This document shows, one piece after another, positions 1 through 63,150 of a DNA stretch of 64,000 bases. Numbering within the stretch: the stretch's first letter is position 1; each line of letters opens with the position of its first letter. The stretch is taken from contig JAFEAO010000001.1 of NCBI GenBank assembly GCA_018266375.1, positions 6,800 through 70,799 of the forward strand. Reading direction: 5' to 3'. The notes under the pieces were generated by a model. It did no database searches and was not told the DNA's origin. It saw only the letters and a program-made list of their open reading frames with translations. The DNA comes from Bdellovibrionales bacterium (GTDB taxonomy: Bacteria > Bdellovibrionota > UBA1018 > CAIMNF01). A program made the translations under genes and the position numbers.

Positions 1-2
1 TC

Positions 3-341
3 GGCCGCGTACCTCGCCCGTGGATCGGCATCATCTCCCGTCAGGTGACGCCAACTCTCGCCTACTCTTACGGCCTCGGACGCGAAAGCGGAATCATCAT
101 CATCAATCTCGTGCAATCGGCCCCAGCCGATCGCTCGGAATTGCAAGTCGGCGATATCATCTATGAGATCGGCGGCAAAAAAATCATCGAGCAACAAGAA
201 GTCGAACGCGCGCTCGCCAAACTCAAACCCACCGACAATGTTGAAATCACCGTCCAGCGAGGCCGCAAAACCATTAAAAAACTCCTCAAACTCGAAGAAT
301 TCCCGCCGCAACTCAATCGCGTACGGGAAGGAGTCATCTAG
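3..341 (+). CDS. C-terminal PDZ-domain end of an HtrA/DegP-family periplasmic serine protease (5' partial, continues upstream of the window)
   Basis: The frame is open from base 3 to a stop at 339-341. Translation ...PRPWIGIISRQVTPTLAYSYGLGRESGIIIINLVQSAPADRSELQVGDIIYEIGGKKI... matches the PDZ signature (SPA..AGL..GDII..ING) of DegP/HtrA C-terminal domains. Confidence 0.55.
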   Translation, partial: GRVPRPWIGIISRQVTPTLAYSYGLGRESGIIIINLVQSAPADRSELQVGDIIYEIGGKKIIEQQEVERALAKLKPTDNVEITVQRGRKTIKKLLKLEEFPPQLNRVREGVI

Positions 342-447
342 TGCCTTGTTGTACCATTTTTTTCAATTTGTACGCAGGGCTTTTTCGTCCATTCAAGGAA
401 GGGCGACGAAGAACTACTAGAGGTAATTCAAGGAGGAGTGACGCGGA

Positions 448-507
448 ATGAACGAAAAAGAACCAGTAAAAATTGAAAAAAATGGTACAACAAGGCACTC
501 ACTATGA
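448..507 (+). CDS. 19-codon upstream ORF (MNEKEPVKIEKNGTTRHSL) with a perfect Shine-Dalgarno; its TGA stop overlaps the ATG of the 504..1157 gene
   Basis: AAGGAGGAG lies at 431-439, 8 nt before ATG 448. The stop TGA at 505-507 overlaps ATG 504-506 (ctATGAaa). Confidence 0.3.
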   Translation: MNEKEPVKIEKNGTTRHSL

Positions 508-1157
508 AAAAATGGGACAAACGCCTTAAACCCACTCAAGCATCGAATTCGAAGAGCTCGCCCCTTCCTCACGATTACCTGAAACTCGTGGAGCAAACCC
601 TCACTCAAGCACTGGAGAAAGGCTTGACTGAGATTAAAAAAATACATCCCATATCGGAATTCTCCGCCGACGGAGCGCTCTTTGGTGATGAAGTGATCAT
701 TGCGATCACTCTCTCGCACGGACCGAACTCGGTTGCTGCCACCACGGTTTACGCCAGCGCGGATTACAATCCAAACGCCGAGCTTCCGGGCTTGGAAGCC
801 ACGCTCAGCTCATGCGTGGAGTCCGCGGGTTCCGTTTTTGATTTCTATTTGGATGTAGAGAATCCGGAGAAAGTCGCGCAAATCGCCAACCAATCTCTGG
901 GCGCTCTCGAAGAAGCCCCTTTCGAGTGGACTAAATCCACTCTTCCGGAAGGCGTGCAGGCTTGGGTCAAAATCGACAAAACCAATCCGAAACTCGAAGA
1001 AGCCGCCGACGATTGGCTCGCGAAGAACGACCCTAACTATAAAGAGCGTGATAAAAAAGACGACGATGACTCGGAAGACTTCTTAAGCGACCGCTTGGAT
1101 GCGATCAAAAAAGCCAAGAGCGGGTCAGGCGGCGATAGCGGCCCAATCCGACATTAA
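504..1157 (+). CDS. Hypothetical acidic protein (217 aa) with no signal peptide and a D/E-rich C-terminus
   Basis: Long ORF with coding-like composition and no recognisable family motif. The start is probably reached by translational coupling from the upstream small ORF, because no SD of its own is visible. Confidence 0.45.
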   Translation: MKKWDKRLKPTQASNSKSSPLPHDYLKLVEQTLTQALEKGLTEIKKIHPISEFSADGALFGDEVIIAITLSHGPNSVAATTVYASADYNPNAELPGLEATLSSCVESAGSVFDFYLDVENPEKVAQIANQSLGALEEAPFEWTKSTLPEGVQAWVKIDKTNPKLEEAADDWLAKNDPNYKERDKKDDDDSEDFLSDRLDAIKKAKSGSGGDSGPIRH

Positions 1158-1160
1158 CAA

Positions 1161-1251
1161 GGTAACGGGTTCCTTTTGGTTGAGGTTTGCGTCATCCTTC
1201 GTGTGTTGAAGATCGAATGACGCAAATCTCAACCAAAAGGAACCCGTTACC
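1161..1251. repeat. 91-nt perfect hairpin: 35-nt arms (one G·U position) and a 21-nt loop, filling the convergent intergenic gap
   Basis: Left arm ggtaacgggttccttttggttgaggtttgcgtcat (1161-1195). Right arm atgacgcaaatctcaaccaaaaggaacccgttacc (1217-1251) is its reverse complement except one G/A position. Stop codons of the flanking convergent genes lie at 1155-1157 and 1253-1255. Confidence 0.85.
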
Positions 1252-1252
1252 T

Positions 1253-2116
1253 CTATTGGAACTGGCCTGTAGCCAAATGATAACGAGTCAGCTGGCCATG
1301 CACGTCCTGGTGAACGACGACCGAGTTAATCACCTTCACGGTGCCCGCGACTCCGATAAATTTTTCGGTGACCTTATTTCGGGTGGCGTCGAATACGACG
1401 AAGTAATTTCCCATCGAAGCGGCGATAACATCTTTACCACGCACTAAGGTGTCCATATCGTTTCGAGCACCTTCATACTTGCTCACGATTTCTCCGTTGG
1501 CGTAACCCACAAAGTAATTTCCGATCAAGGCGCCGGCGATGCTTTCACCCGCAACCACTTTATTGGCATCGCTTGCAACAATGTACTTGGTCTTGATTTC
1601 CTTACCGTCGGTCACGACAAAGTAAGAGCCCATCACCGCGGCAGCCAAGGTTTTCGATGACGTGAGAATCGGCTTATCTTCCCAGCTTCCGATGTATTGA
1701 GTAGTGAGCTTCGAACCGCGAACGGTCACGAAATATCCACCCGCGATGCCCGCAATCAAGTCCTCACTCACCGTGAGCAAGCGCTTCGACATCGGGCCGA
1801 TAAACTTGCTTTCAATCGCGCCCCGATGGAAATACATGAAGTAAGAACCCGCCAGTGCCGCAGCGGATTTCTCGCTGCATTCCACTGCGACTTCATTCGA
1901 TGAAGCTGTTTGGCCGATGTATTTTTCCCACTTTCCTACTCCGTCGGTAACGCGGAAATATCCGTCGGTGTAGTTACAAATCAGCTTGTCGCCGACTTTT
2001 ATCCGCTTGGTTTTAGTTTTGGTACGAGTGATTGCGGTCGTGGTGACCGGAGAAGCTTGAACTCCGGCGGCCGCCATCGCTCCCGCGACTAGGACGAGAG
2101 ACCCAAACTTTTTCAT
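1253..2116 (-). CDS. Secreted repeat protein (287 aa): signal peptide plus about seven repeats of roughly 35-40 aa with core G(S/N)YF-V-x-x-G-x-x-x-x-KYIG
   Basis: N-terminal MKKFGSLVLVAGAMAAAGVQA signal peptide and AAGGA RBS 9 nt upstream of the ATG at 2114-2116. Motifs GSYFMYF, GGYFVTVRG, GSYFVVTDG, GNYFVGYANG and GNYFVVFDA recur periodically. Confidence 0.6.
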   Translation of the reverse strand: MKKFGSLVLVAGAMAAAGVQASPVTTTAITRTKTKTKRIKVGDKLICNYTDGYFRVTDGVGKWEKYIGQTASSNEVAVECSEKSAAALAGSYFMYFHRGAIESKFIGPMSKRLLTVSEDLIAGIAGGYFVTVRGSKLTTQYIGSWEDKPILTSSKTLAAAVMGSYFVVTDGKEIKTKYIVASDANKVVAGESIAGALIGNYFVGYANGEIVSKYEGARNDMDTLVRGKDVIAASMGNYFVVFDATRNKVTEKFIGVAGTVKVINSVVVHQDVHGQLTRYHLATGQFQ

Positions 2117-2119
2117 GGT

Positions 2120-2593
2120 TTAGTATCCTTTGACGTAGCGGTCGCACACCATGTTTTCAGAGGTGACCGAGCCATTTTCTTTAATGTACTTCGCGAGCGC
2201 CGTAAATTTTTCGTTCGGAGACGATGGGGCGTTGTACTGATAGCTAAAGTTGACGGCGAGTTTAATCGTTTTCAGGTAACCGAGTTTGGTACCTGCGATG
2301 TTCTCACCGGTACGACCGACCGAAGTAAAACGGCTGTCGACGTCCGCGGTGTAAACCGTGCTTGAAGAAGTGAGTAGACCTTGAACTTTTTTGAAGGTGG
2401 CGATGGTTTTATTGCGTCCCTTCAGCTTTGGATCGGATGCAATCAAGATCGCAGCGACACGGGTGCCGAGCTTGGGCTGGGTGTTGTTGTAGACCACGAG
2501 CCTTTGTTTGTAGATCAAACCCTCGCAGCGAAAACCGTCCGCGAATGATGTCTGACCAACCCACACGGCTACGAACACAACAAATGCCTTCAT
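2120..2593 (-). CDS. Small secreted hypothetical protein (158 aa), co-transcribed with the downstream repeat protein
   Basis: Internal ATG at 2591-2593 is preceded by GGAGAG and gives MKAFVVFVAVWVGQTSFA (a signal peptide). Its stop lies 3 nt before the start of the 1253..2116 gene. Confidence 0.55.
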   Translation of the reverse strand: MKAFVVFVAVWVGQTSFADGFRCEGLIYKQRLVVYNNTQPKLGTRVAAILIASDPKLKGRNKTIATFKKVQGLLTSSSTVYTADVDSRFTSVGRTGENIAGTKLGYLKTIKLAVNFSYQYNAPSSPNEKFTALAKYIKENGSVTSENMVCDRYVKGY

Positions 2594-2776
2594 CAATCTC
2601 TCCTTTGCAGCCCTCGCTTGGGCCAGAAACTTTTGATGACGCGGAATTAGCATGCGCAGCAACATATATCCAAAAGTTCGACGACGTTACGGAGAAGTTA
2701 AAACAGAGTCGCAATTATTGCCGTAAAATTAACGATTTGAAGAGAAATTAAAAAAAGGCAAATTTACCGCAACGCG

Positions 2777-3565
2777 TTAAAAATCGCCCTCGTCGCCGTC
2801 TTCTGAACCCTTACCACCGATGGATCCAATAAGGGAATCGATCGAATCACCGTCGTAATCCAAATCGTCGATTGACTCATCGAGCTCGAGATCATGAATG
2901 ATCTTCGTGAAGTTTACTTCGGTTGAAAGATCCTGGCGGATAATGTCGATGTATTTATCCGGGTATTTGCTCACCAACTCTTCGATGTACTGGTTGAGCT
3001 TCCCTTCTTTCAGGATCATTTCCTTACGCTTAATCTTTTTCCAATTCTTGATGTAATCAAGACGGCAGTAACCCTTGGTCGTCGCGATGTTTTCGCAGCC
3101 GGCTTCGCGACAAAGCTTCTCACCGGCGGCTTCAGCGGCGCGGATCGCAGCAGCAGACTTTTCTTTGGGTTTGTCAGCAGCGAGTTTTTTAGGTATTTTC
3201 GCGGCTTTGCCTTGTACAAGCGCGACGACCTCTTTCTCGCCTTTGCCTGCTTTACCCTTTTTGCCGGCGGCGACTTTACTCTCAGCAGACGCTGATACAA
3301 CGGCTTTCGTTGCTGTCTTCGTTGTTGCCGCTTTCGTTACCGACGCTTTCGCCGCGCCTTTTGCGACCTTGGTCGGCTTCGTGACTTTTTCAACCTTTGC
3401 TAGCTTAGTGGCTGAAGGGGCCGGCTTCTTCGTCAGCGCCTTTTTAGCAGCTTTCGGAGCCATGGCTTTTGCCAGAGTCTTTTTCAAGGTTTTTACAAGA
3501 CGGGCCATCGGCTTTTTGCCTCGGACGCTCTTGTTTTGACTCGGCTTTTTAGGGGATTTTTTCAT
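2777..3565 (-). CDS. Histone H1-like Lys/Ala-rich DNA-binding protein with a Cys-containing central region and an acidic D/E/G-rich C-terminal tail
   Basis: N-terminal ~170 aa are KA-rich low-complexity (AKKALTKKPAPSATKLAKVEKVTKPTKVAKGAAKA...) like the histone H1 C-terminal tail and bacterial Hc1-type proteins. This is followed by ...CREAGCENIATTKGYCRLDYIKNWKKIKRKE... and a DDLDYDGDSIDSL...EDGDEGDF tail. The start is ambiguous (TTG 3616, ATG 3565 or ATG 3508). Confidence 0.55.
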   Translation of the reverse strand: MKKSPKKPSQNKSVRGKKPMARLVKTLKKTLAKAMAPKAAKKALTKKPAPSATKLAKVEKVTKPTKVAKGAAKASVTKAATTKTATKAVVSASAESKVAAGKKGKAGKGEKEVVALVQGKAAKIPKKLAADKPKEKSAAAIRAAEAAGEKLCREAGCENIATTKGYCRLDYIKNWKKIKRKEMILKEGKLNQYIEELVSKYPDKYIDIIRQDLSTEVNFTKIIHDLELDESIDDLDYDGDSIDSLIGSIGGKGSEDGDEGDF

Positions 3566-3670
3566 TTCTATTTTGGTGCCCGAAACATCATTCAGCGTCA
3601 AGCTTTTTCTTGACAACCGTACGTTTTTAGTCGATTTTAAACGTTCACAATTTTTTGAAAGGTAACGACC

Positions 3671-3874
3671 ATGGCAGTCCCTAAGAAAAAAGCATCACGC
3701 AGCCGCCGCGATATGCGCCGCTATTCAGCAGCTTACGAGCTCGATCCGATTTCTGCGACCACTTGCAAATTTACTCAGACCCAGGTCCGCGCGCACACGA
3801 TTTCAATGAAGGCGCTTAAGGACGGCTCATACGAAGCTGGTAAAAAAACCACTTCTAAATCAGCAGCTCGTTAA
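3671..3874 (+). CDS. rpmF: 50S ribosomal protein L32
   Basis: MAVPKKKASRSRRDMRR... is the canonical L32 N-terminus. It sits at the classic position upstream of the fab genes. Confidence 0.85.
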   Translation: MAVPKKKASRSRRDMRRYSAAYELDPISATTCKFTQTQVRAHTISMKALKDGSYEAGKKTTSKSAAR

Positions 3875-3887
3875 GTATTAGCTCTGC

Positions 3888-4901
3888 ATGAAGGCAGGCT
3901 TTTTTCCAGGTCAGGGCTCTCAAAGTGTCGGGATGGGTAAACTCTTCTACGACGAATTCACGGTCTTCCGTCAAACGATCGAAGAAGCTTCAGATACGCT
4001 TGGCTTTAACTTCAAAAAACTTCTATTCGAAGGACCGGACGGCGATCTCACTTTAACCGAGAACGCTCAACCGGCAATCCTCGCTGTCTCCACCGGATGC
4101 TTCCGCGTGGCGGAAGCCGAAATCGGAATGAAGACCGACGTCAATCTCGGACATTCACTCGGCGAGTATTCGGCGCTCGTGGCATGCGATGCGATCGATT
4201 TCTCGAATGCGATTGCATGGGTTCGCGAACGCGGACTTGCGATGCAAAAAGCGGTGCCGATCGGCGAAGGCACTATGAGCGCGATCTTGGGAGGAGAGGA
4301 CGCCCAGATCGAAACCTGGTGTAAAGAAGCGACCGCTCTGGCTAAATCCGCGCGCGCAGATGGCGCAAAAACTGCGACCGGTGGCGAGTGGTCGGTCACT
4401 TGTTCGGTGGAACCCGCCAACTACAATGCTCAAGGGCAGATCGTCGTCTCGGGTTCGATCGATGCGGTCGCTGCACTCGAAACCCTGATTACCAACTTGA
4501 AAATCCGCGGCGTGATGGCCAAACGCCTCAATGTCAGCGCTCCTTTCCACAGCTCCTTGATGAAACCGGCGCGCGACAAGATGGAATCGATTTTCGCAAC
4601 AGCCACAAAGCCCACCATCCTCGCCACTCCTTACATTCCAAACCGAACCGCCAACATCACTCACGAGCCGGGAGTGATCCATCCCCTGCTCTCAGAACAG
4701 GTCGATCATTCGGTGTTGTGGAAACAAAGCGTGGAAACACTTCTCCAAAGCGGCTGTAAAAAAGCTTTTGAATTCGGCCCAGGCAAAGTCCTGCAAGGTC
4801 TCGCTAAGCGCATCGCTAAAACCGCAGGCGCTGAATTCGAAACCTACCCGATCTACGATCTTGAATCCTTAAAACTCGCCGAGGGAGCGCTAAAATCATG
4901 A
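3888..4901 (+). CDS. fabD: Malonyl-CoA:ACP transacylase
   Basis: GHSLGEYSAL active-site motif and the FAPFHSSLM region. It is about 25 aa longer than E. coli FabD, from an insert around residues 150-175. Confidence 0.9.
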   Translation: MKAGFFPGQGSQSVGMGKLFYDEFTVFRQTIEEASDTLGFNFKKLLFEGPDGDLTLTENAQPAILAVSTGCFRVAEAEIGMKTDVNLGHSLGEYSALVACDAIDFSNAIAWVRERGLAMQKAVPIGEGTMSAILGGEDAQIETWCKEATALAKSARADGAKTATGGEWSVTCSVEPANYNAQGQIVVSGSIDAVAALETLITNLKIRGVMAKRLNVSAPFHSSLMKPARDKMESIFATATKPTILATPYIPNRTANITHEPGVIHPLLSEQVDHSVLWKQSVETLLQSGCKKAFEFGPGKVLQGLAKRIAKTAGAEFETYPIYDLESLKLAEGALKS

Positions 4902-8028: not shown

Positions 8029-8380
8029 CCCGCGAAACCGGGCAATTCCTTTCGTTTTAACGACGCTCGTAACTGAGCGGTGCGTCTCGTGAGAGTCGTA
8101 AGCAACACAGTCACGACCCAACTTTTGCATCCGTGCACGTCCCACACCACGGTTTTAAAATTCAGGCCAGATAAAAACGGAGTTCTCGACGGTACCAAAT
8201 GTCGTCACACCGCTTACAACGGCTTCGTCATAAATGTCGGTGATTCTCACAAGGTCCGATTCGGCCGCAGGTCGAATGATCATATACTTAGAGGATACGG
8301 CGAGATGACGCACGTCTTAACGCGAACGTCCTCCTGACGTTTTCGGTGACAATTTGGCCCATTCGAGGTCTAATACGGGC

Positions 8381-10164: not shown

Positions 10165-11441
10165 AACCGAACGGGTTTAAAGCGCCTGCTTTCTCTCAAG
10201 ACCTGAAATCGACCGACCCAAAAGTATTTGAGTCCATTCAAAATGAAAGTCGGCGTGAAGAGGACGGTCTTGAGCTGATCGCTTCGGAGAACTATACTTC
10301 GAAAGCGGTACTGGAAGCACAAGGTTCGATCATGACCAACAAGTACGCCGAAGGCTATCCCGGCAAGCGTTACTACGGCGGGTGCATGTACGTTGACATC
10401 GCCGAGTCACTCGCGATTGAGCGTGCGTGTAACCTCTTCGGAGCCGAAGCCGCGAACGTCCAGCCGCACTCGGGATCAAGCGCCAACATGGGCGTGTACC
10501 TCTCGATCCTTCAACCCGGCGACACTATCCTCGGCATGGATCTCTCGCATGGCGGTCACCTCACTCACGGTAGTCCGGTCAACTTCTCAGGGAAATTGTT
10601 TCGTGCCACTCACTACGGATTAAACATGGAGACGCATCGTCTCGATTACGATATCATTCGCGACACGGCCAAGCGCGAGAAGCCTAAAATGATCGTCGCG
10701 GGCGCAAGCGCATACCCGCGTGTGATCGATTTCGTAAAATTCAAAGAGATCGCGGACGAGGTCGGCGCGAAGCTCGTCGTCGATATGGCCCACATCGCGG
10801 GTCTCGTAGCGGCGGGTCTCCATCCTTCTCCGATCCCGCATGCGGCATACACCACGACGACCACGCACAAAACCTTGCGCGGTCCTCGCGGCGGGATGAT
10901 CTTGTGCTCGCAAGAAAATTTGAAAGCGATCAACTCGCTCATCTTTCCGGGCATTCAAGGCGGACCGCTCATGCACGTGATCGCGGCTAAAGCAGTATCG
11001 TTTCAGGAAGCTCTTCAGCCGGAATTCAAGACTTATCAATCTCGTGTAGTGGAAAACGCAAAGGTGCTTGCGGAGAGCTTGATCGGCGCAGGTTTCGGCC
11101 TCGTCACCGGTGGCACCGACAACCACTTAATGCTCGTCGATCTCACTCAGTCGCTCGATAAAACCGTCACCGGCAAAGAGGCGGAAAGCTGGCTCGACCT
11201 CGCCGGCATCACCGTGAACAAAAACACGGTACCCAACGAGAAACGCTCGCCGTTTATCACGAGTGGGATCCGCATCGGTACTCCGGCGATGACCACTCGC
11301 GGGCTCGGCGTTGGCGAGATGAAAATGGTTGCCCAGTGGATCAAGTTCGCGCTGGAGTCCAAAGGCAATGCCGGCACGCTCGAAAAAATCCGCAGCGAAG
11401 TCAAAGAACTCTGCCAGCTGTTTCCGGTTTACGGACATTAA
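10161..11441 (+). CDS. glyA: Serine hydroxymethyltransferase
   Basis: [20 protein letters not shown] and [16 protein letters not shown], with the PLP-Lys region [14 protein letters not shown]. The start at ATG 10161 overlaps the rpiB stop (ATGA); the longer track ORF is an upstream in-frame extension. Confidence 0.9.
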
Positions 11442-60779: not shown

Positions 60780-62183
60780 ATGGAATTCATACCCACGATT
60801 CTCTCTGGCGGCGCCGGCACCCGTCTTTGGCCGGTCTCCCGGACCAAGTTTCCTAAACAATTTTGCGATATTTTCAATTCCAGCCTCTTCCAGATGACTC
60901 TCGACCGTCTCTCGAAGCTCGGCTCCCCTTGGGTGGTGACCAACGAAGGCCTGAAGGTCCTGACCGAAACCGCGCTTCGGAATTCCGCCATTCCGGTGGA
61001 ACAAGCTCTGTTCGAGCCGAAAGCCAATAACACCGCGCCTGCGATTGCCTTCCTTTGCAAAGTGCTTCAACAACAAGGAAAGCAAAAATCCGTTGTGGGG
61101 ATTTTTCCGTCCGACCACCTGGTCGACAATGCCAAAAACTTTGAAGCGGCGGTAAAACTCGGAATCGAGTGCGCGCAAAAAGGCCAGGTCGTCACGCTCG
61201 GAATCAAGCCGACTTACCCGGCGACCGGCTACGGTTACATCGAGATCACCAAAGATGTTTTTAAAACTTCGGGTGGTTTGAGCGCGCAACCGACCAAGGG
61301 CTTCCGTGAGAAACCGAACTTCGATACTGCCGAAAACTTCATCGCGGCCGGAAATTTTTTCTGGAACGCGGGGATGTTTATCTTCGAAGCGGCAACCATG
61401 ATCGAACATTTCAAAAAGTGGATGCCGGATCTGTGGGCCGTGATCGACACGCTTGCGCCGAATTTCAATAATCTAAAAGAAGTCTACGCCCGTTGCCCGT
61501 CCCAGAGTATCGACTACGGCATCATGGAAAAAATCAAAGAACAGGTTTGTATCCCGTGCGATCTTGGCTGGAGCGACGTCGGATCCTGGGATGAGATCGC
61601 GAAACTCAAACCGTCGGCACCGAAAACCGAAGTGGACTCCTACCGAAATTACGTATTTTCCGAATCGGCTTCAATCGGCGATAAAGTCGTTGGCTTCATC
61701 GATGTCACCGATTTGATCGTGATCGACACGGTGGACGCGCTCCTGATCACGAAGCGAGACTCTTCTCAGAAAGTGAAAACCCTTTTAGAGATCATTTTGA
61801 AATCGGGTCCGGGCCGTGCGGGTAAACTCGCGGCCGAGCACCCGTTTGAAATCCGTCCTTGGGGCCGCTTCGAAGTTTTGCGCGACACCGACGGATTTAA
61901 ATCAAAAATCATCCAGGTCAATCCGGGCCAACAGCTATCTTATCAAAGCCATGCTAAGCGCGCCGAACACTGGGTGATCGTCAAAGGCAACCCGGAAGTC
62001 ACTCTCGACGACGTCGTTCATCAACTTAAACCCGGCGAAAACATCTACATCCCACAAGGCGCCAAACACCGTATCCGTAATCCGGACAAAAAAGAAATCG
62101 TGGAGTTCGTCGAAGTCCAGGTCGGCACCTACTTCGGAGAGGACGACATCGTCCGCTACCAAGACGATTACAAACGCGTATAG
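60780..62183 (+). CDS. manC: Mannose-1-phosphate guanylyltransferase / mannose-6-phosphate isomerase (bifunctional, cupin C-terminus)
   Basis: MEFIPTILSGGAGTRLWPVSR nucleotidyltransferase N-terminus and a C-terminal cupin region ...KRAEHWVIVKGNPEVTL...GENIYIPQGAKHRIRN. Confidence 0.85.
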   Translation: MEFIPTILSGGAGTRLWPVSRTKFPKQFCDIFNSSLFQMTLDRLSKLGSPWVVTNEGLKVLTETALRNSAIPVEQALFEPKANNTAPAIAFLCKVLQQQGKQKSVVGIFPSDHLVDNAKNFEAAVKLGIECAQKGQVVTLGIKPTYPATGYGYIEITKDVFKTSGGLSAQPTKGFREKPNFDTAENFIAAGNFFWNAGMFIFEAATMIEHFKKWMPDLWAVIDTLAPNFNNLKEVYARCPSQSIDYGIMEKIKEQVCIPCDLGWSDVGSWDEIAKLKPSAPKTEVDSYRNYVFSESASIGDKVVGFIDVTDLIVIDTVDALLITKRDSSQKVKTLLEIILKSGPGRAGKLAAEHPFEIRPWGRFEVLRDTDGFKSKIIQVNPGQQLSYQSHAKRAEHWVIVKGNPEVTLDDVVHQLKPGENIYIPQGAKHRIRNPDKKEIVEFVEVQVGTYFGEDDIVRYQDDYKRV

Positions 62184-62205
62184 AAGGTAACGGGTGCATT
62201 ACGGT

Positions 62206-63150
62206 TTAGATCTTCGCGAAATACTCGTGTGTGAGCTTTAAGCCCTCGGCAAGCTGCACCCTTGGTTCCCAATTGAGGAGTCGTTGTGCGGTCGTGATGT
62301 CGGGCTTGCGTTGCTTTGGGTCGTCGCTCGGCAAAGGCCTGAACGTCATCTGGAGCGCTTTGCCCGTGAGCTTCTCGATCTCTTTGGCAAGTTCGAGAAT
62401 GGTGAACTCGTTCGGGTTACCCAAGTTCACCGGCTGATTGTAATCCACATCCATCAAGCGAATTACGCCTTCAATGAGATCACTCACGTATTGGAAGCTA
62501 CGAGTTTGTTTGCCGTCACCGTAGATCGTGAACTCCTGCCCGCGAATCGCCTGCATGAGGAGGTTCGTGACCACGCGGCCATCTTCCGGATCCATCTTCG
62601 GCCCGTACGTGTTGAAGATACGGATCACACGCACGTCGAGTTTTTTGGCGCGATGGTAGGCGTAAGTGATCGCCTCTCCGTAACGTTTGCCTTCGTCGTA
62701 GATGGAGCGCACACCGATCGGATTGACATTACCCCAGTAACTCTCGGTTTGCGGATGCACGAGCGGATCGCCGTACACTTCGGACGTCGAAGAATAGAAA
62801 AACTTGGCGCGAGATGCATGCGCGAAATCGAGAAGATGGCGAGTCCCCTCGCCATTGACGAGCATGGTCTCAATCGGAATCGCGAAATACTTAGGTGGAG
62901 ACGCCGGAGACGCGAAGTGCATCACCCAATCAAACTTCATACGCGATACCGGACACGCGATCGGAAAGGGCTTTGAAATATCGTGTTCTAGGAAATCAAA
63001 GTCCTTATTGGTCTTGAGACCATCGAGATTGATGGAGCGGCCGGTACAAAAATTGTCGATGCCTAAAACAAAGTGTCCGTGCGCCGTAAGTTCGGTCGCG
63101 AGATGGGATCCAATAAAGCCGGCTGCGCCCGTCAGTAAGATATTGGCCAT
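62206..63150 (-). CDS. UDP-glucuronate decarboxylase (UXS-type SDR; UDP-xylose synthase)
   Basis: ILLTGAAGFIGSHL Rossmann motif, the YxxxK region (...YDEGKRYGE...), 314 aa, with overall UXS-like spacing. Confidence 0.75.
   Translation of the reverse strand: MANILLTGAAGFIGSHLATELTAHGHFVLGIDNFCTGRSINLDGLKTNKDFDFLEHDISKPFPIACPVSRMKFDWVMHFASPASPPKYFAIPIETMLVNGEGTRHLLDFAHASRAKFFYSSTSEVYGDPLVHPQTESYWGNVNPIGVRSIYDEGKRYGEAITYAYHRAKKLDVRVIRIFNTYGPKMDPEDGRVVTNLLMQAIRGQEFTIYGDGKQTRSFQYVSDLIEGVIRLMDVDYNQPVNLGNPNEFTILELAKEIEKLTGKALQMTFRPLPSDDPKQRKPDITTAQRLLNWEPRVQLAEGLKLTHEYFAKI

Follow-up and report, generated by a model that had tools for sequence, protein, structure and literature searches.

The window, by which we mean the whole 64-kb stretch of Bdellovibrionales DNA analysed here, carries near its left end a long inverted repeat lodged between the stop codons of two convergent genes. 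The upstream gene encodes a protein identical to JST80_00040 of a Bdellovibrionales MAG and served as the anchor for finding orthologous loci; the convergent gene has syntenic counterparts of 269-279 aa in two relatives, L001 and L002. The features discussed below are the following.

504..1157, + strand: upstream flanking gene, 217 aa, conserved hypothetical protein, outside the element (69 homologs, no Pfam family)
1157..1195, + strand: left unit, probably a REP unit (nhmmer E 9e-8 with an HMM of the 54-unit family)
1157-1177, + strand: small-hairpin part of the left unit with A-rich and T-rich flanks, weak (AACAAGGTAACGGGTTCCTTTT)
1174-1195, + strand: core of the left unit, TTTTGGTTGAG-GTTT-GCGTCAT (ungapped alignment to 50 other units)
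1196..1216, no strand: spacer (loop) of the doublet, 21 nt (CCTTCGTGTGTTGAAGATCGA)
1217..1255, - strand: right unit, probably a REP unit, inverted so that the cores face inward (nhmmer 1255-1217, E 2e-8)
1217-1238 and 1235-1255, - strand: core and small-hairpin part, respectively, of the right unit (covariance model match 1217-1258, 50.6 bits)
1253..2116, - strand: convergent flanking gene, 287 aa, outside the element (signal-peptide-like N terminus, weak PQQ_2/BamB-like repeat match)
8305-8344, - strand: weak covariance model match, 11.6 bits, E about 0.04 (GAAAACGTCAGGAGGACGTTCGCGTTAAGACGTGCGTCAT), inside a non-coding stretch at ~8029-8380
62184..62220, + strand: candidate decayed singlet, AAGGTAACGGGTGCATTACGGTTTAGATCTTCGCGAA, 26/37 identical to the window unit
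1857-1942 of relative L011: homologous doublet, compared with window 1157-1255

A repeat search placed the arms at 1160-1195 and 1217-1252, 36 nt each and 97% complementary, with 21 nt between them. Thus, the 35-bp stem with one mismatch described in an earlier note on this DNA exists and gains an extra pair at its outer end, and the 21-nt loop (1196-1216) is as described there. The single G/A difference between the arms is also compatible with pairing in RNA, as G1185 forms a G.U pair in the + strand transcript. Folding of the RNA gave -67.8 kcal/mol for the + strand (z -12.8) and -65.7 kcal/mol for the - strand (z -11.9), with 0/200 shuffles as good in either case. When a 120-nt sliding fold was run across all 64 kb, the hairpin proved by far the most stable local fold of the window, at -71.5 compared with -52.3 for the second-best position and an average of -29.9 (sd 6.9). 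Position 1157 is the last base of the TAA of gene 504..1157; the two nucleotides CA come next, and the stem begins at 1160. At the other side, the stem end at 1252 directly adjoins (0 nt) the stop codon (CTA = TAG) of gene 1253..2116. The exact filling of a convergent stop-to-stop gap that the earlier note had recorded is, therefore, a correct description of the placement.

Since the source is a MAG and chimeric reads can give long perfect inverted repeats, a fold-back chimera introduced during assembly deserves consideration, but its probability is negligible. The arms are not copies of adjacent sequence, and a homolog occupies the equivalent site in another organism (see below). Moreover, a Logan contig from another run (L010, SRR22038625, 1158 nt) is identical to window positions 32-1189 save for an A instead of G at 1185. 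This independent contig carries the left flank and arm, and therefore the hairpin is no assembly artefact. The contig ends within the left arm, which is where an assembly graph with k=31 is expected to break if the inverted repeat is perfect. Its A at 1185 falls on the sole mismatched position, so that the stem would be perfect in that sample; the G/A difference reflects either a polymorphism in the population or a sign of arm-to-arm correction.

The gene order around the site, protease followed by hypothetical protein and a convergent gene of 270-280 aa, is kept in relatives, and this allows filled and empty states to be compared. In L001 (75% amino acid identity, alignment A1), only 3 nt separate the stop codons (TAAccgTTA) and no hairpin is found; likewise, L002 (69% amino acid identity) has 18 nt between the stop codons and no hairpin. 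L003 and L004 carry a different downstream gene, with gaps that are likewise short or missing. In L011, the closest relative (76%), the equivalent position holds a hairpin, TAAaaGGTCGTCCCCGACTTTTGGTTGAGAGTAGCGTCAT - 20 nt - ATGACGCATTTCTCAACCAAAAGTCGGGGAC, and the contig ends there. Both states of the presence/absence polymorphism that had been proposed for checking are thus seen among syntenic relatives (filled in L011; empty in L001 and L002), with the limitation that a protein divergence of ~25% blurs gain versus loss. In a neighbour-joining tree of the flanking protein, the window and L011 are sisters with the empty-site clade next, a grouping that is not firm because the identities, 75-76%, are too close.

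The two filled sites differ in a telling manner. The inner 22 nt of each arm match between the window and L011 except for a 4-nt variable patch. In contrast, 9 of 10 nt within the outer arm part are different, with the same changes in both arms, and the window spacer CCTTCGTGTGTTGAAGATCGA is not conserved with the 20-nt spacer of L011. Judging from these alignments, the same core combined with a symmetric swap of the hairpin interior is not what drift by point mutation would be expected to produce. It suggests either the independent insertion at a favoured site of a subtype proper to each genome or the conversion of a resident element to the master sequence of the genome.

Could the hairpin instead be a locus-specific bidirectional terminator, or an mRNA-stabilising hairpin, that evolved and was conserved in place without ever being mobile? 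The exact fit to the convergent gap agrees with this idea, as does the homologous hairpin of the sister L011 with both arms changed in step. The earlier note had stated that no U-tract follows on either strand. This holds for the + strand, where CUAUUGGA comes next, but not for the - strand, where the hairpin runs into UUGUUAAU (5 U in 8), a weak U-rich stretch that would again suit a terminator. On the other hand, intrinsic terminators have a GC-rich stem of ~5-12 bp, a short loop, and a direct U-tract, and this combination is absent from an element with a 36-bp stem and a 21-nt loop; a stem far above the need of termination speaks against a simple terminator, as had been argued previously. 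A promoter/terminator scan of positions 1-4000 made no call at the hairpin, and Rfam at gathering thresholds gave no match in the whole window. The earlier note had named, as grounds for abandoning its reading, an element conserved in relatives only as a generic terminator. The site is shared with one relative, in the form of a homologous long hairpin, and otherwise nearly no gap is present in the relatives, none of which has an ordinary terminator; L001 and L002 manage with 3-18 nt and no hairpin. [quoted passage not shown] We consider a terminator evolved in place very unlikely, and as an account of the origin of the element it fails; a mobile element of the kind that we favor may nonetheless also terminate transcription.

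The arm belongs to a dispersed family. Within the 64-kb window, no other copy was found with up to 3 mismatches, and an exact 18-mer of the outer arm gave only 5 single-arm matches, in unrelated phyla and at chance level, in a collection of 185,579 species genomes to which the source MAG does not belong. When a metagenome collection was scanned with the inner-stem core alone (query TTTTGGTTGAGNNNNGCGTCAT), 77 loci with 83 matches were recovered, ~60 of which are true units and ~20 apparent chance matches. The ~60 units share an upstream small hairpin that was not part of the query, AAAAGGT-N9-10-CC-TTTT (e.g., AAAAGGTGtccgtCACCTTTT), and the consensus nnnAAAAGGTnnCCnnnnnCTTTTGGTTGAGAnnTGCGTCAT can be aligned to every unit without a gap. 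The search for copies of the arm that had been recommended earlier thus reveals dispersed singlets and inverted doublets. Searching the fetched loci with a family HMM gave 109 units (E < 0.01), with up to five on a 10.8-kb contig, and one unit subtype was found on 6 contigs from two samples. The commonest subtype stems from GC-rich contigs, and the family looks phylum-wide in Bdellovibrionota because the DNA polymerase I on one of these contigs is closest to Oligoflexia, Bdellovibrionales, and Bacteriovoracia proteins.

Each arm of the window element corresponds to one unit of ~39 nt, in which a small hairpin with A-tract and T-tract precedes the core TTTTGGTTGAG-N4-GCGTCAT; the 16-mer GGTAACGGGTTCCTTT is suited to counting unit copies. 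Both arms score as family units. The covariance model R1 matched the left one at 1154-1195 with 49.6 bits, a score to be read in light of the presence of this arm in the training alignment. Taken as full units, the element overlaps both stop codons, by 1 nt and by 3 nt: the first base of the left unit overlaps the TAA (1155-1157) of gene 504..1157, and the outer 3 nt of the right unit are the TAG (1253-1255, - strand) of gene 1253..2116.

Across the family, the positions of the small hairpin are paired in 78.8% of cells versus 72.6 +/- 0.9% in shuffles (0/500 as high), and changes on both sides of a pair number 32 versus 10.4 expected, with covariation at the inner pairs; the innermost pair is GC in 21 units, AU in 17, and CG in 5. 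The pairing together with the both-sided changes indicates that the hairpin structure is kept while its sequence differs by lineage. Single units of most subtypes resemble terminators composed of A-tract, stem, and T-tract (e.g., -15.8 kcal/mol, z -4.6), a likeness that counts in favor of a terminator function as discussed above. A single unit of the window subtype pairs at 6/8 hairpin positions, and its folding energy of -3.5 to -5 kcal/mol is matched by shuffled sequences. Because its single unit folds so weakly, the recognition of the window subtype as a REP hairpin is less certain than that of the others. Possibly, this subtype relies on being a doublet, or it is undergoing decay.

Singlets and inverted doublets are the defining organisation of REP sequences and REPINs (PMC3116915), and inverted doublets are the rule in this family. 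Inward-facing pairs hold 47/100 non-redundant units, direct pairs are few, and only one close outward-facing pair was seen. Nineteen doublets are compact, with spacers of 1-188 nt, and the spacers of the window (21 nt) and of L011 (20 nt) lie in the middle of this range. Three doublets (L054 ~3010-3110, L056 ~982-1102, and L076 1336-1462) have a common spacer of 46-49 nt (GCGTAGCAAACCGG..GCCG..GGTTTGC.AAGCCTG.AATTGACGCGGGTCTCAACC), and by this sequence they would form a sub-family in which the loop was copied along with the arms.

With a size of ~95-100 nt, near-perfect arms, and presence or absence at an orthologous site, the window element might also be taken for a classical MITE with terminal inverted repeats, moved by a DDE transposase. 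However, no target-site duplication is visible at either junction, and about half of the units of the family are stand-alone singlets with unchanged boundaries. Furthermore, the arms are spaced by anything from 1 to 188 nt with no common internal sequence, and the only transposase found between inverted units is of the HUH-Y1 type. Neither a DDE transposase flanked by units nor consistent target-site duplications were found in the ~0.5 Mb of fetched loci. Hence, we regard mobilisation of this kind as highly improbable.

An association with an HUH-Y1 transposase is apparent in a Bdellovibrio sp. contig (L044), where inverted units enclose an ORF of 205 aa with an HUH motif (NHYH) and the tyrosine motif KYVLRNP. 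Inverted units also stand on both sides of a Y1 gene in L033/L052 and in the cultured B. bacteriovorus and B. svalbardensis, and the Y1 transposase gene of L061 has a unit immediately upstream of it, which makes four independent settings with L044 included. The B. bacteriovorus unit at this gene reads AAAAGGTACGGACTTACTTTTGGTAGCGCAGTTGCGTTA (unit sequence, AAAAGGTACGGACTTACTTTTGG). The transposase TGA stop of L044 (1841-1843) lies within the ATGACGC core of the right-hand unit, so that gene and repeat overlap, and in L089 (~10630-10667) the end of the transposase gene meets the adjacent inverted unit. No RAYT gene is encoded within the 64-kb window.

The L044 ORF matched Pfam Y1_Tnp with 35 bits (cut-off, 23); among the NCBIfam models, REP_Tyr_transpos (NF047646; E 4e-17) matched it best, at 62.3 bits, below the curated cut-off of 80. 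Because REP_Tyr_transpos is the best-scoring family and yet is missed at its threshold, the unit-linked transposase would, by its sequence, represent a divergent RAYT clade. H61 and H63 of the HUH motif and the catalytic tyrosine Y121 are invariant in 48 homologs. Named homologs come mostly from Bdellovibrio and Bdellovibrionales, and some carry the JGI label "REP element-mobilizing transposase RayT." When the B. bacteriovorus protein was modelled with AlphaFold (pLDDT 91, pTM 0.89), Foldseek gave 4ER8, the E. coli RAYT-REP complex, as the best match to the predicted structure (E 1.5e-10, TM 0.72). The transposase of the relatives thus combines HUH and tyrosine motifs with a predicted Y1 fold nearer to TnpA(REP) than to IS200 TnpA, as expected of a RAYT.

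Given that the enzyme flanked by the units is a Y1 HUH protein of the same superfamily and falls below the curated RAYT cut-off, and that a gene between inverted units resembles an insertion sequence with subterminal hairpins, one may ask whether the element is rather a PATE/MITE derivative of an autonomous IS200/IS605-type element, moved by the TnpA of that element and not by a domesticated single-copy RAYT. Several observations make this improbable, although it is the most credible of the alternatives that we considered. The TnpA proteins of IS200, IS608, and ISDra2 were weaker structural matches (E about 1e-5), so that the predicted structure fits 4ER8 about five orders of magnitude better, and 4ER8 is also the only PDB entry matched at the sequence level. 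The gene measures ~200-230 aa, not ~130-150 aa, and has no tnpB partner. Its chromosomal surroundings are shared by two B. bacteriovorus genomes and B. svalbardensis, which is consistent with vertical inheritance of a single-copy RAYT gene, as read from gene order, and not with a multicopy insertion sequence. Finally, the units far outnumber the transposase genes on the fetched loci. In the B. bacteriovorus and B. svalbardensis loci L089/L090 (10001-10654) and L091 (10001-10678), the RAYT gene has ftsE/ftsX and the M23 and S41 peptidases to one side and trigger factor to the other.

Taken together, the hairpin is very probably a REPIN, composed of two inverted, core-inward REP units of ~39 nt and a 21-nt spacer, and a member of a Bdellovibrionota family whose units bracket a RAYT gene in relatives. 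REPINs are short non-coding mobile elements in which a repeat recognised by a RAYT, a transposase acting on single-stranded DNA, is present as two inverted copies. An inverted pair of units separated by a short spacer is predicted to fold here into one long hairpin, as REPINs do. Of the possibilities listed in the earlier note, the REP/MITE-like palindromic element has gained support, from the dispersed unit family, the bracketing of RAYT genes in related genomes, and the locus that is present or absent. Stems this long are formally RNase III substrates. An RNase III substrate or a recombination site, the other two possibilities, is compatible with a REPIN without being its defining feature. 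As to other structured elements, the ends do not fit the RYYYAAC/GTTRRRY of an integron attC site, which would leave the RAYT linkage unexplained, and neither a group IIC intron target, a XerCD site, nor a CRISPR repeat fits the unit or explains that linkage.

The position of the units with respect to genes is distinctive. The A-tract starts at most 3 nt from an upstream stop codon in 32 of 109 units versus 1.7 expected (~19-fold), and at most 10 nt away in 41 of 109 versus 2.5 expected. Units lie inside long stop-free frames in 29% of cases, compared with 77% of random positions. As a doublet presents an A-tract end on each side, a convergent stop-to-stop gap is its natural home.

How such an element might be placed and maintained can be reasoned from the biochemistry of TnpA(REP) and of the IS200/IS605 TnpA (PMC3479197, PMC6006769). 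By analogy, the RAYT would recognise the folded unit together with the conserved single-stranded tail GGTTGAG-N4-GCGTCAT, and RAYT-catalysed cleavage and joining of single-stranded DNA would have placed the element with no target duplication. Replication of the doublet as a unit would keep its arms near-identical.

In transcripts, the 36-bp RNA stem would cap the 3' ends of both convergent mRNAs and act as a barrier to 3' exonucleases, as a transcription stop, or as both. Newbury et al. (1987; cited in PMC7509114) described REP-dependent mRNA stabilisation. Transcription stop by the stem may be more plausible for the - strand gene. At distances of 2 nt and 0 nt from the stop codons, the stem could also interfere with terminating ribosomes. 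REPs within ~15 nt of a stop codon are said, in work attributed to Liang, Rudd, and Deutscher from 2015, to be able to stall terminating ribosomes, and both flanking genes fall within this stop-to-stem distance.

In many respects, the family resembles REPINs as described in 2017 (PMC5581495): short inverted units with a variable spacer form a long extragenic hairpin, doublets are the prevailing form and singlets have a decayed look, the units flank an HUH-Y1 gene that is probably single-copy and inherited vertically and whose product has a predicted structure like that of E. coli TnpA(REP), and relatives have orthologous sites in both the filled and the empty state. It differs from these REPINs in that the unit lacks the GT[AG]G tag, which is absent from either strand of the consensus nnnAAAAGGTnnCCnnnnnCTTTTGGTTGAGAnnTGCGTCAT, so that by the classical GTAG definition it would not be called a REP. 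Instead, the unit has a small hairpin, with A- and T-tracts lengthening its stem, and on the 3' side of this hairpin comes a conserved 22-nt tail, TTTTGGTTGAG-N4-GCGTCAT. This tail is common to divergent Bdellovibrionota lineages, whereas the hairpin sequence is lineage-specific. The units also abut stop codons very often, and their abundance looks low in 64 kb; within the window we count one doublet and one or two doubtful relics, whereas related populations are dense in units.

Likewise, a transposase gene flanked by inverted units is reminiscent of the REPtron of TnpA(Y1) classes 2.6 and 3 (Quentin et al. 2018, PMC6006769). Some TnpA(Y1) classes have units that lack GT[AG]G and show weaker secondary structure (PMC6006769), as the units do here. 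The 5' foot CnGA of class 3 is, in contrast, not the part that is conserved here. Bdellovibrio receives no mention in the main text of that study (PMC6006769).

The CGTC-tagged REPs (Di Nocera et al. 2013, PMC3733652) are also short palindromes, mostly arranged as head-to-head dimers, with stems that begin with A-T pairs, and the core described here contains CGTC within GCGTCAT. In those REPs, the tag directly adjoins a stem of 8-9 bp with a loop of 4-5 nt, and no dedicated transposase was found (PMC3733652). Because CGTC lies ~12 nt from the stem in the present family and its units bracket a RAYT gene, the resemblance is probably superficial. The likeness to the IS200/IS605 elements (IS608, ISDra2) and their miniature derivatives lies in HUH-Y1 chemistry on single-stranded DNA, in the recognition of subterminal hairpins with adjacent single-stranded bases, and in the lack of a target duplication. 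Unlike those elements, the present system has a longer enzyme, structurally nearer to RAYT, that is syntenic and probably single-copy and is greatly outnumbered by the repeats.

It is conceivable, and we offer this more tentatively than the assignment as a REPIN, that the family represents an uncatalogued REP superfamily specific to Bdellovibrionota. It would combine a lineage-variable hairpin with a phylum-wide 22-nt tail (TTTTGGTTGAG-N4-GCGTCAT) and a divergent RAYT clade. Its units would be targeted to, or kept at, positions just after stop codons, where they would supply 3' ends and sometimes the stop itself. The window and L011 subtypes would then have arisen by site-specific re-insertion or by master-sequence conversion and not by simple descent.

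While REPINs as such are already known, a REP-RAYT family in predatory bacteria of the Bdellovibrio type may be new. Literature searches on Bdellovibrio together with RAYT or REP returned nothing relevant, and it follows that a REP-RAYT system carried by these predators was not found described in the literature searched. Given that a long conserved single-stranded tail accompanies a variable hairpin, the rules of RAYT recognition and cleavage should be easily testable in vitro. The ~19-fold preference for positions following a stop codon is relevant to a long-standing debate, in which REPs are seen either as parasites that the genome tolerates or as signals recruited to form 3' ends. For annotation, 1157-1255 is best described as a repeat element and not as a gene, an sRNA, or a terminator.

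No further convincing unit was detected in the window by nhmmer (E up to 50) or by the covariance model with its filters off. The earlier note had pointed to a degenerate relative at 62184, and here the evidence is divided. Beyond the 12-mer shared with the window unit, the site matches at 15/25 positions, a likeness reached by 0.04% of window positions (p about 4e-4), but it is missed by both the family HMM and the covariance model. The site likewise lies in a convergent gap, where it directly follows the TAG that ends the manC-like gene 60780..62183, and its 3' part overlaps the end of gene 62206..63150 on the - strand. Tentatively, we regard it as a probable decayed singlet of the window REP unit, going by this residual similarity. 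The weak match at 8305-8344 could be another relic or a chance match. The stretch of ~8029-8380 that surrounds it, between an S41 peptidase gene and a fabF-like gene, is unusually long for a non-coding region.

A second inverted repeat, at 340-499, fills the gap upstream of gene 504..1157. Its 34-nt arms differ by one mismatch and enclose 92 nt, and it folds at -71 kcal/mol (z -9.2). In sequence it has no relation to the REP unit, and no relatives of it were found in the ~0.5 Mb of fetched loci or in a viral collection. Its presence was confirmed in the independent contig L010. This hairpin is an insertion: the corresponding genes of L001 and L002 overlap by ATGA at this position, and those of L011 are 2 nt apart. 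The first bases of the insertion give the upstream protease gene its TAG stop and leave the C-terminal residues unchanged. The loop contains AAGGAGG together with an ORF of 19 codons (448..507) with a TGA that overlaps the ATG of gene 504.
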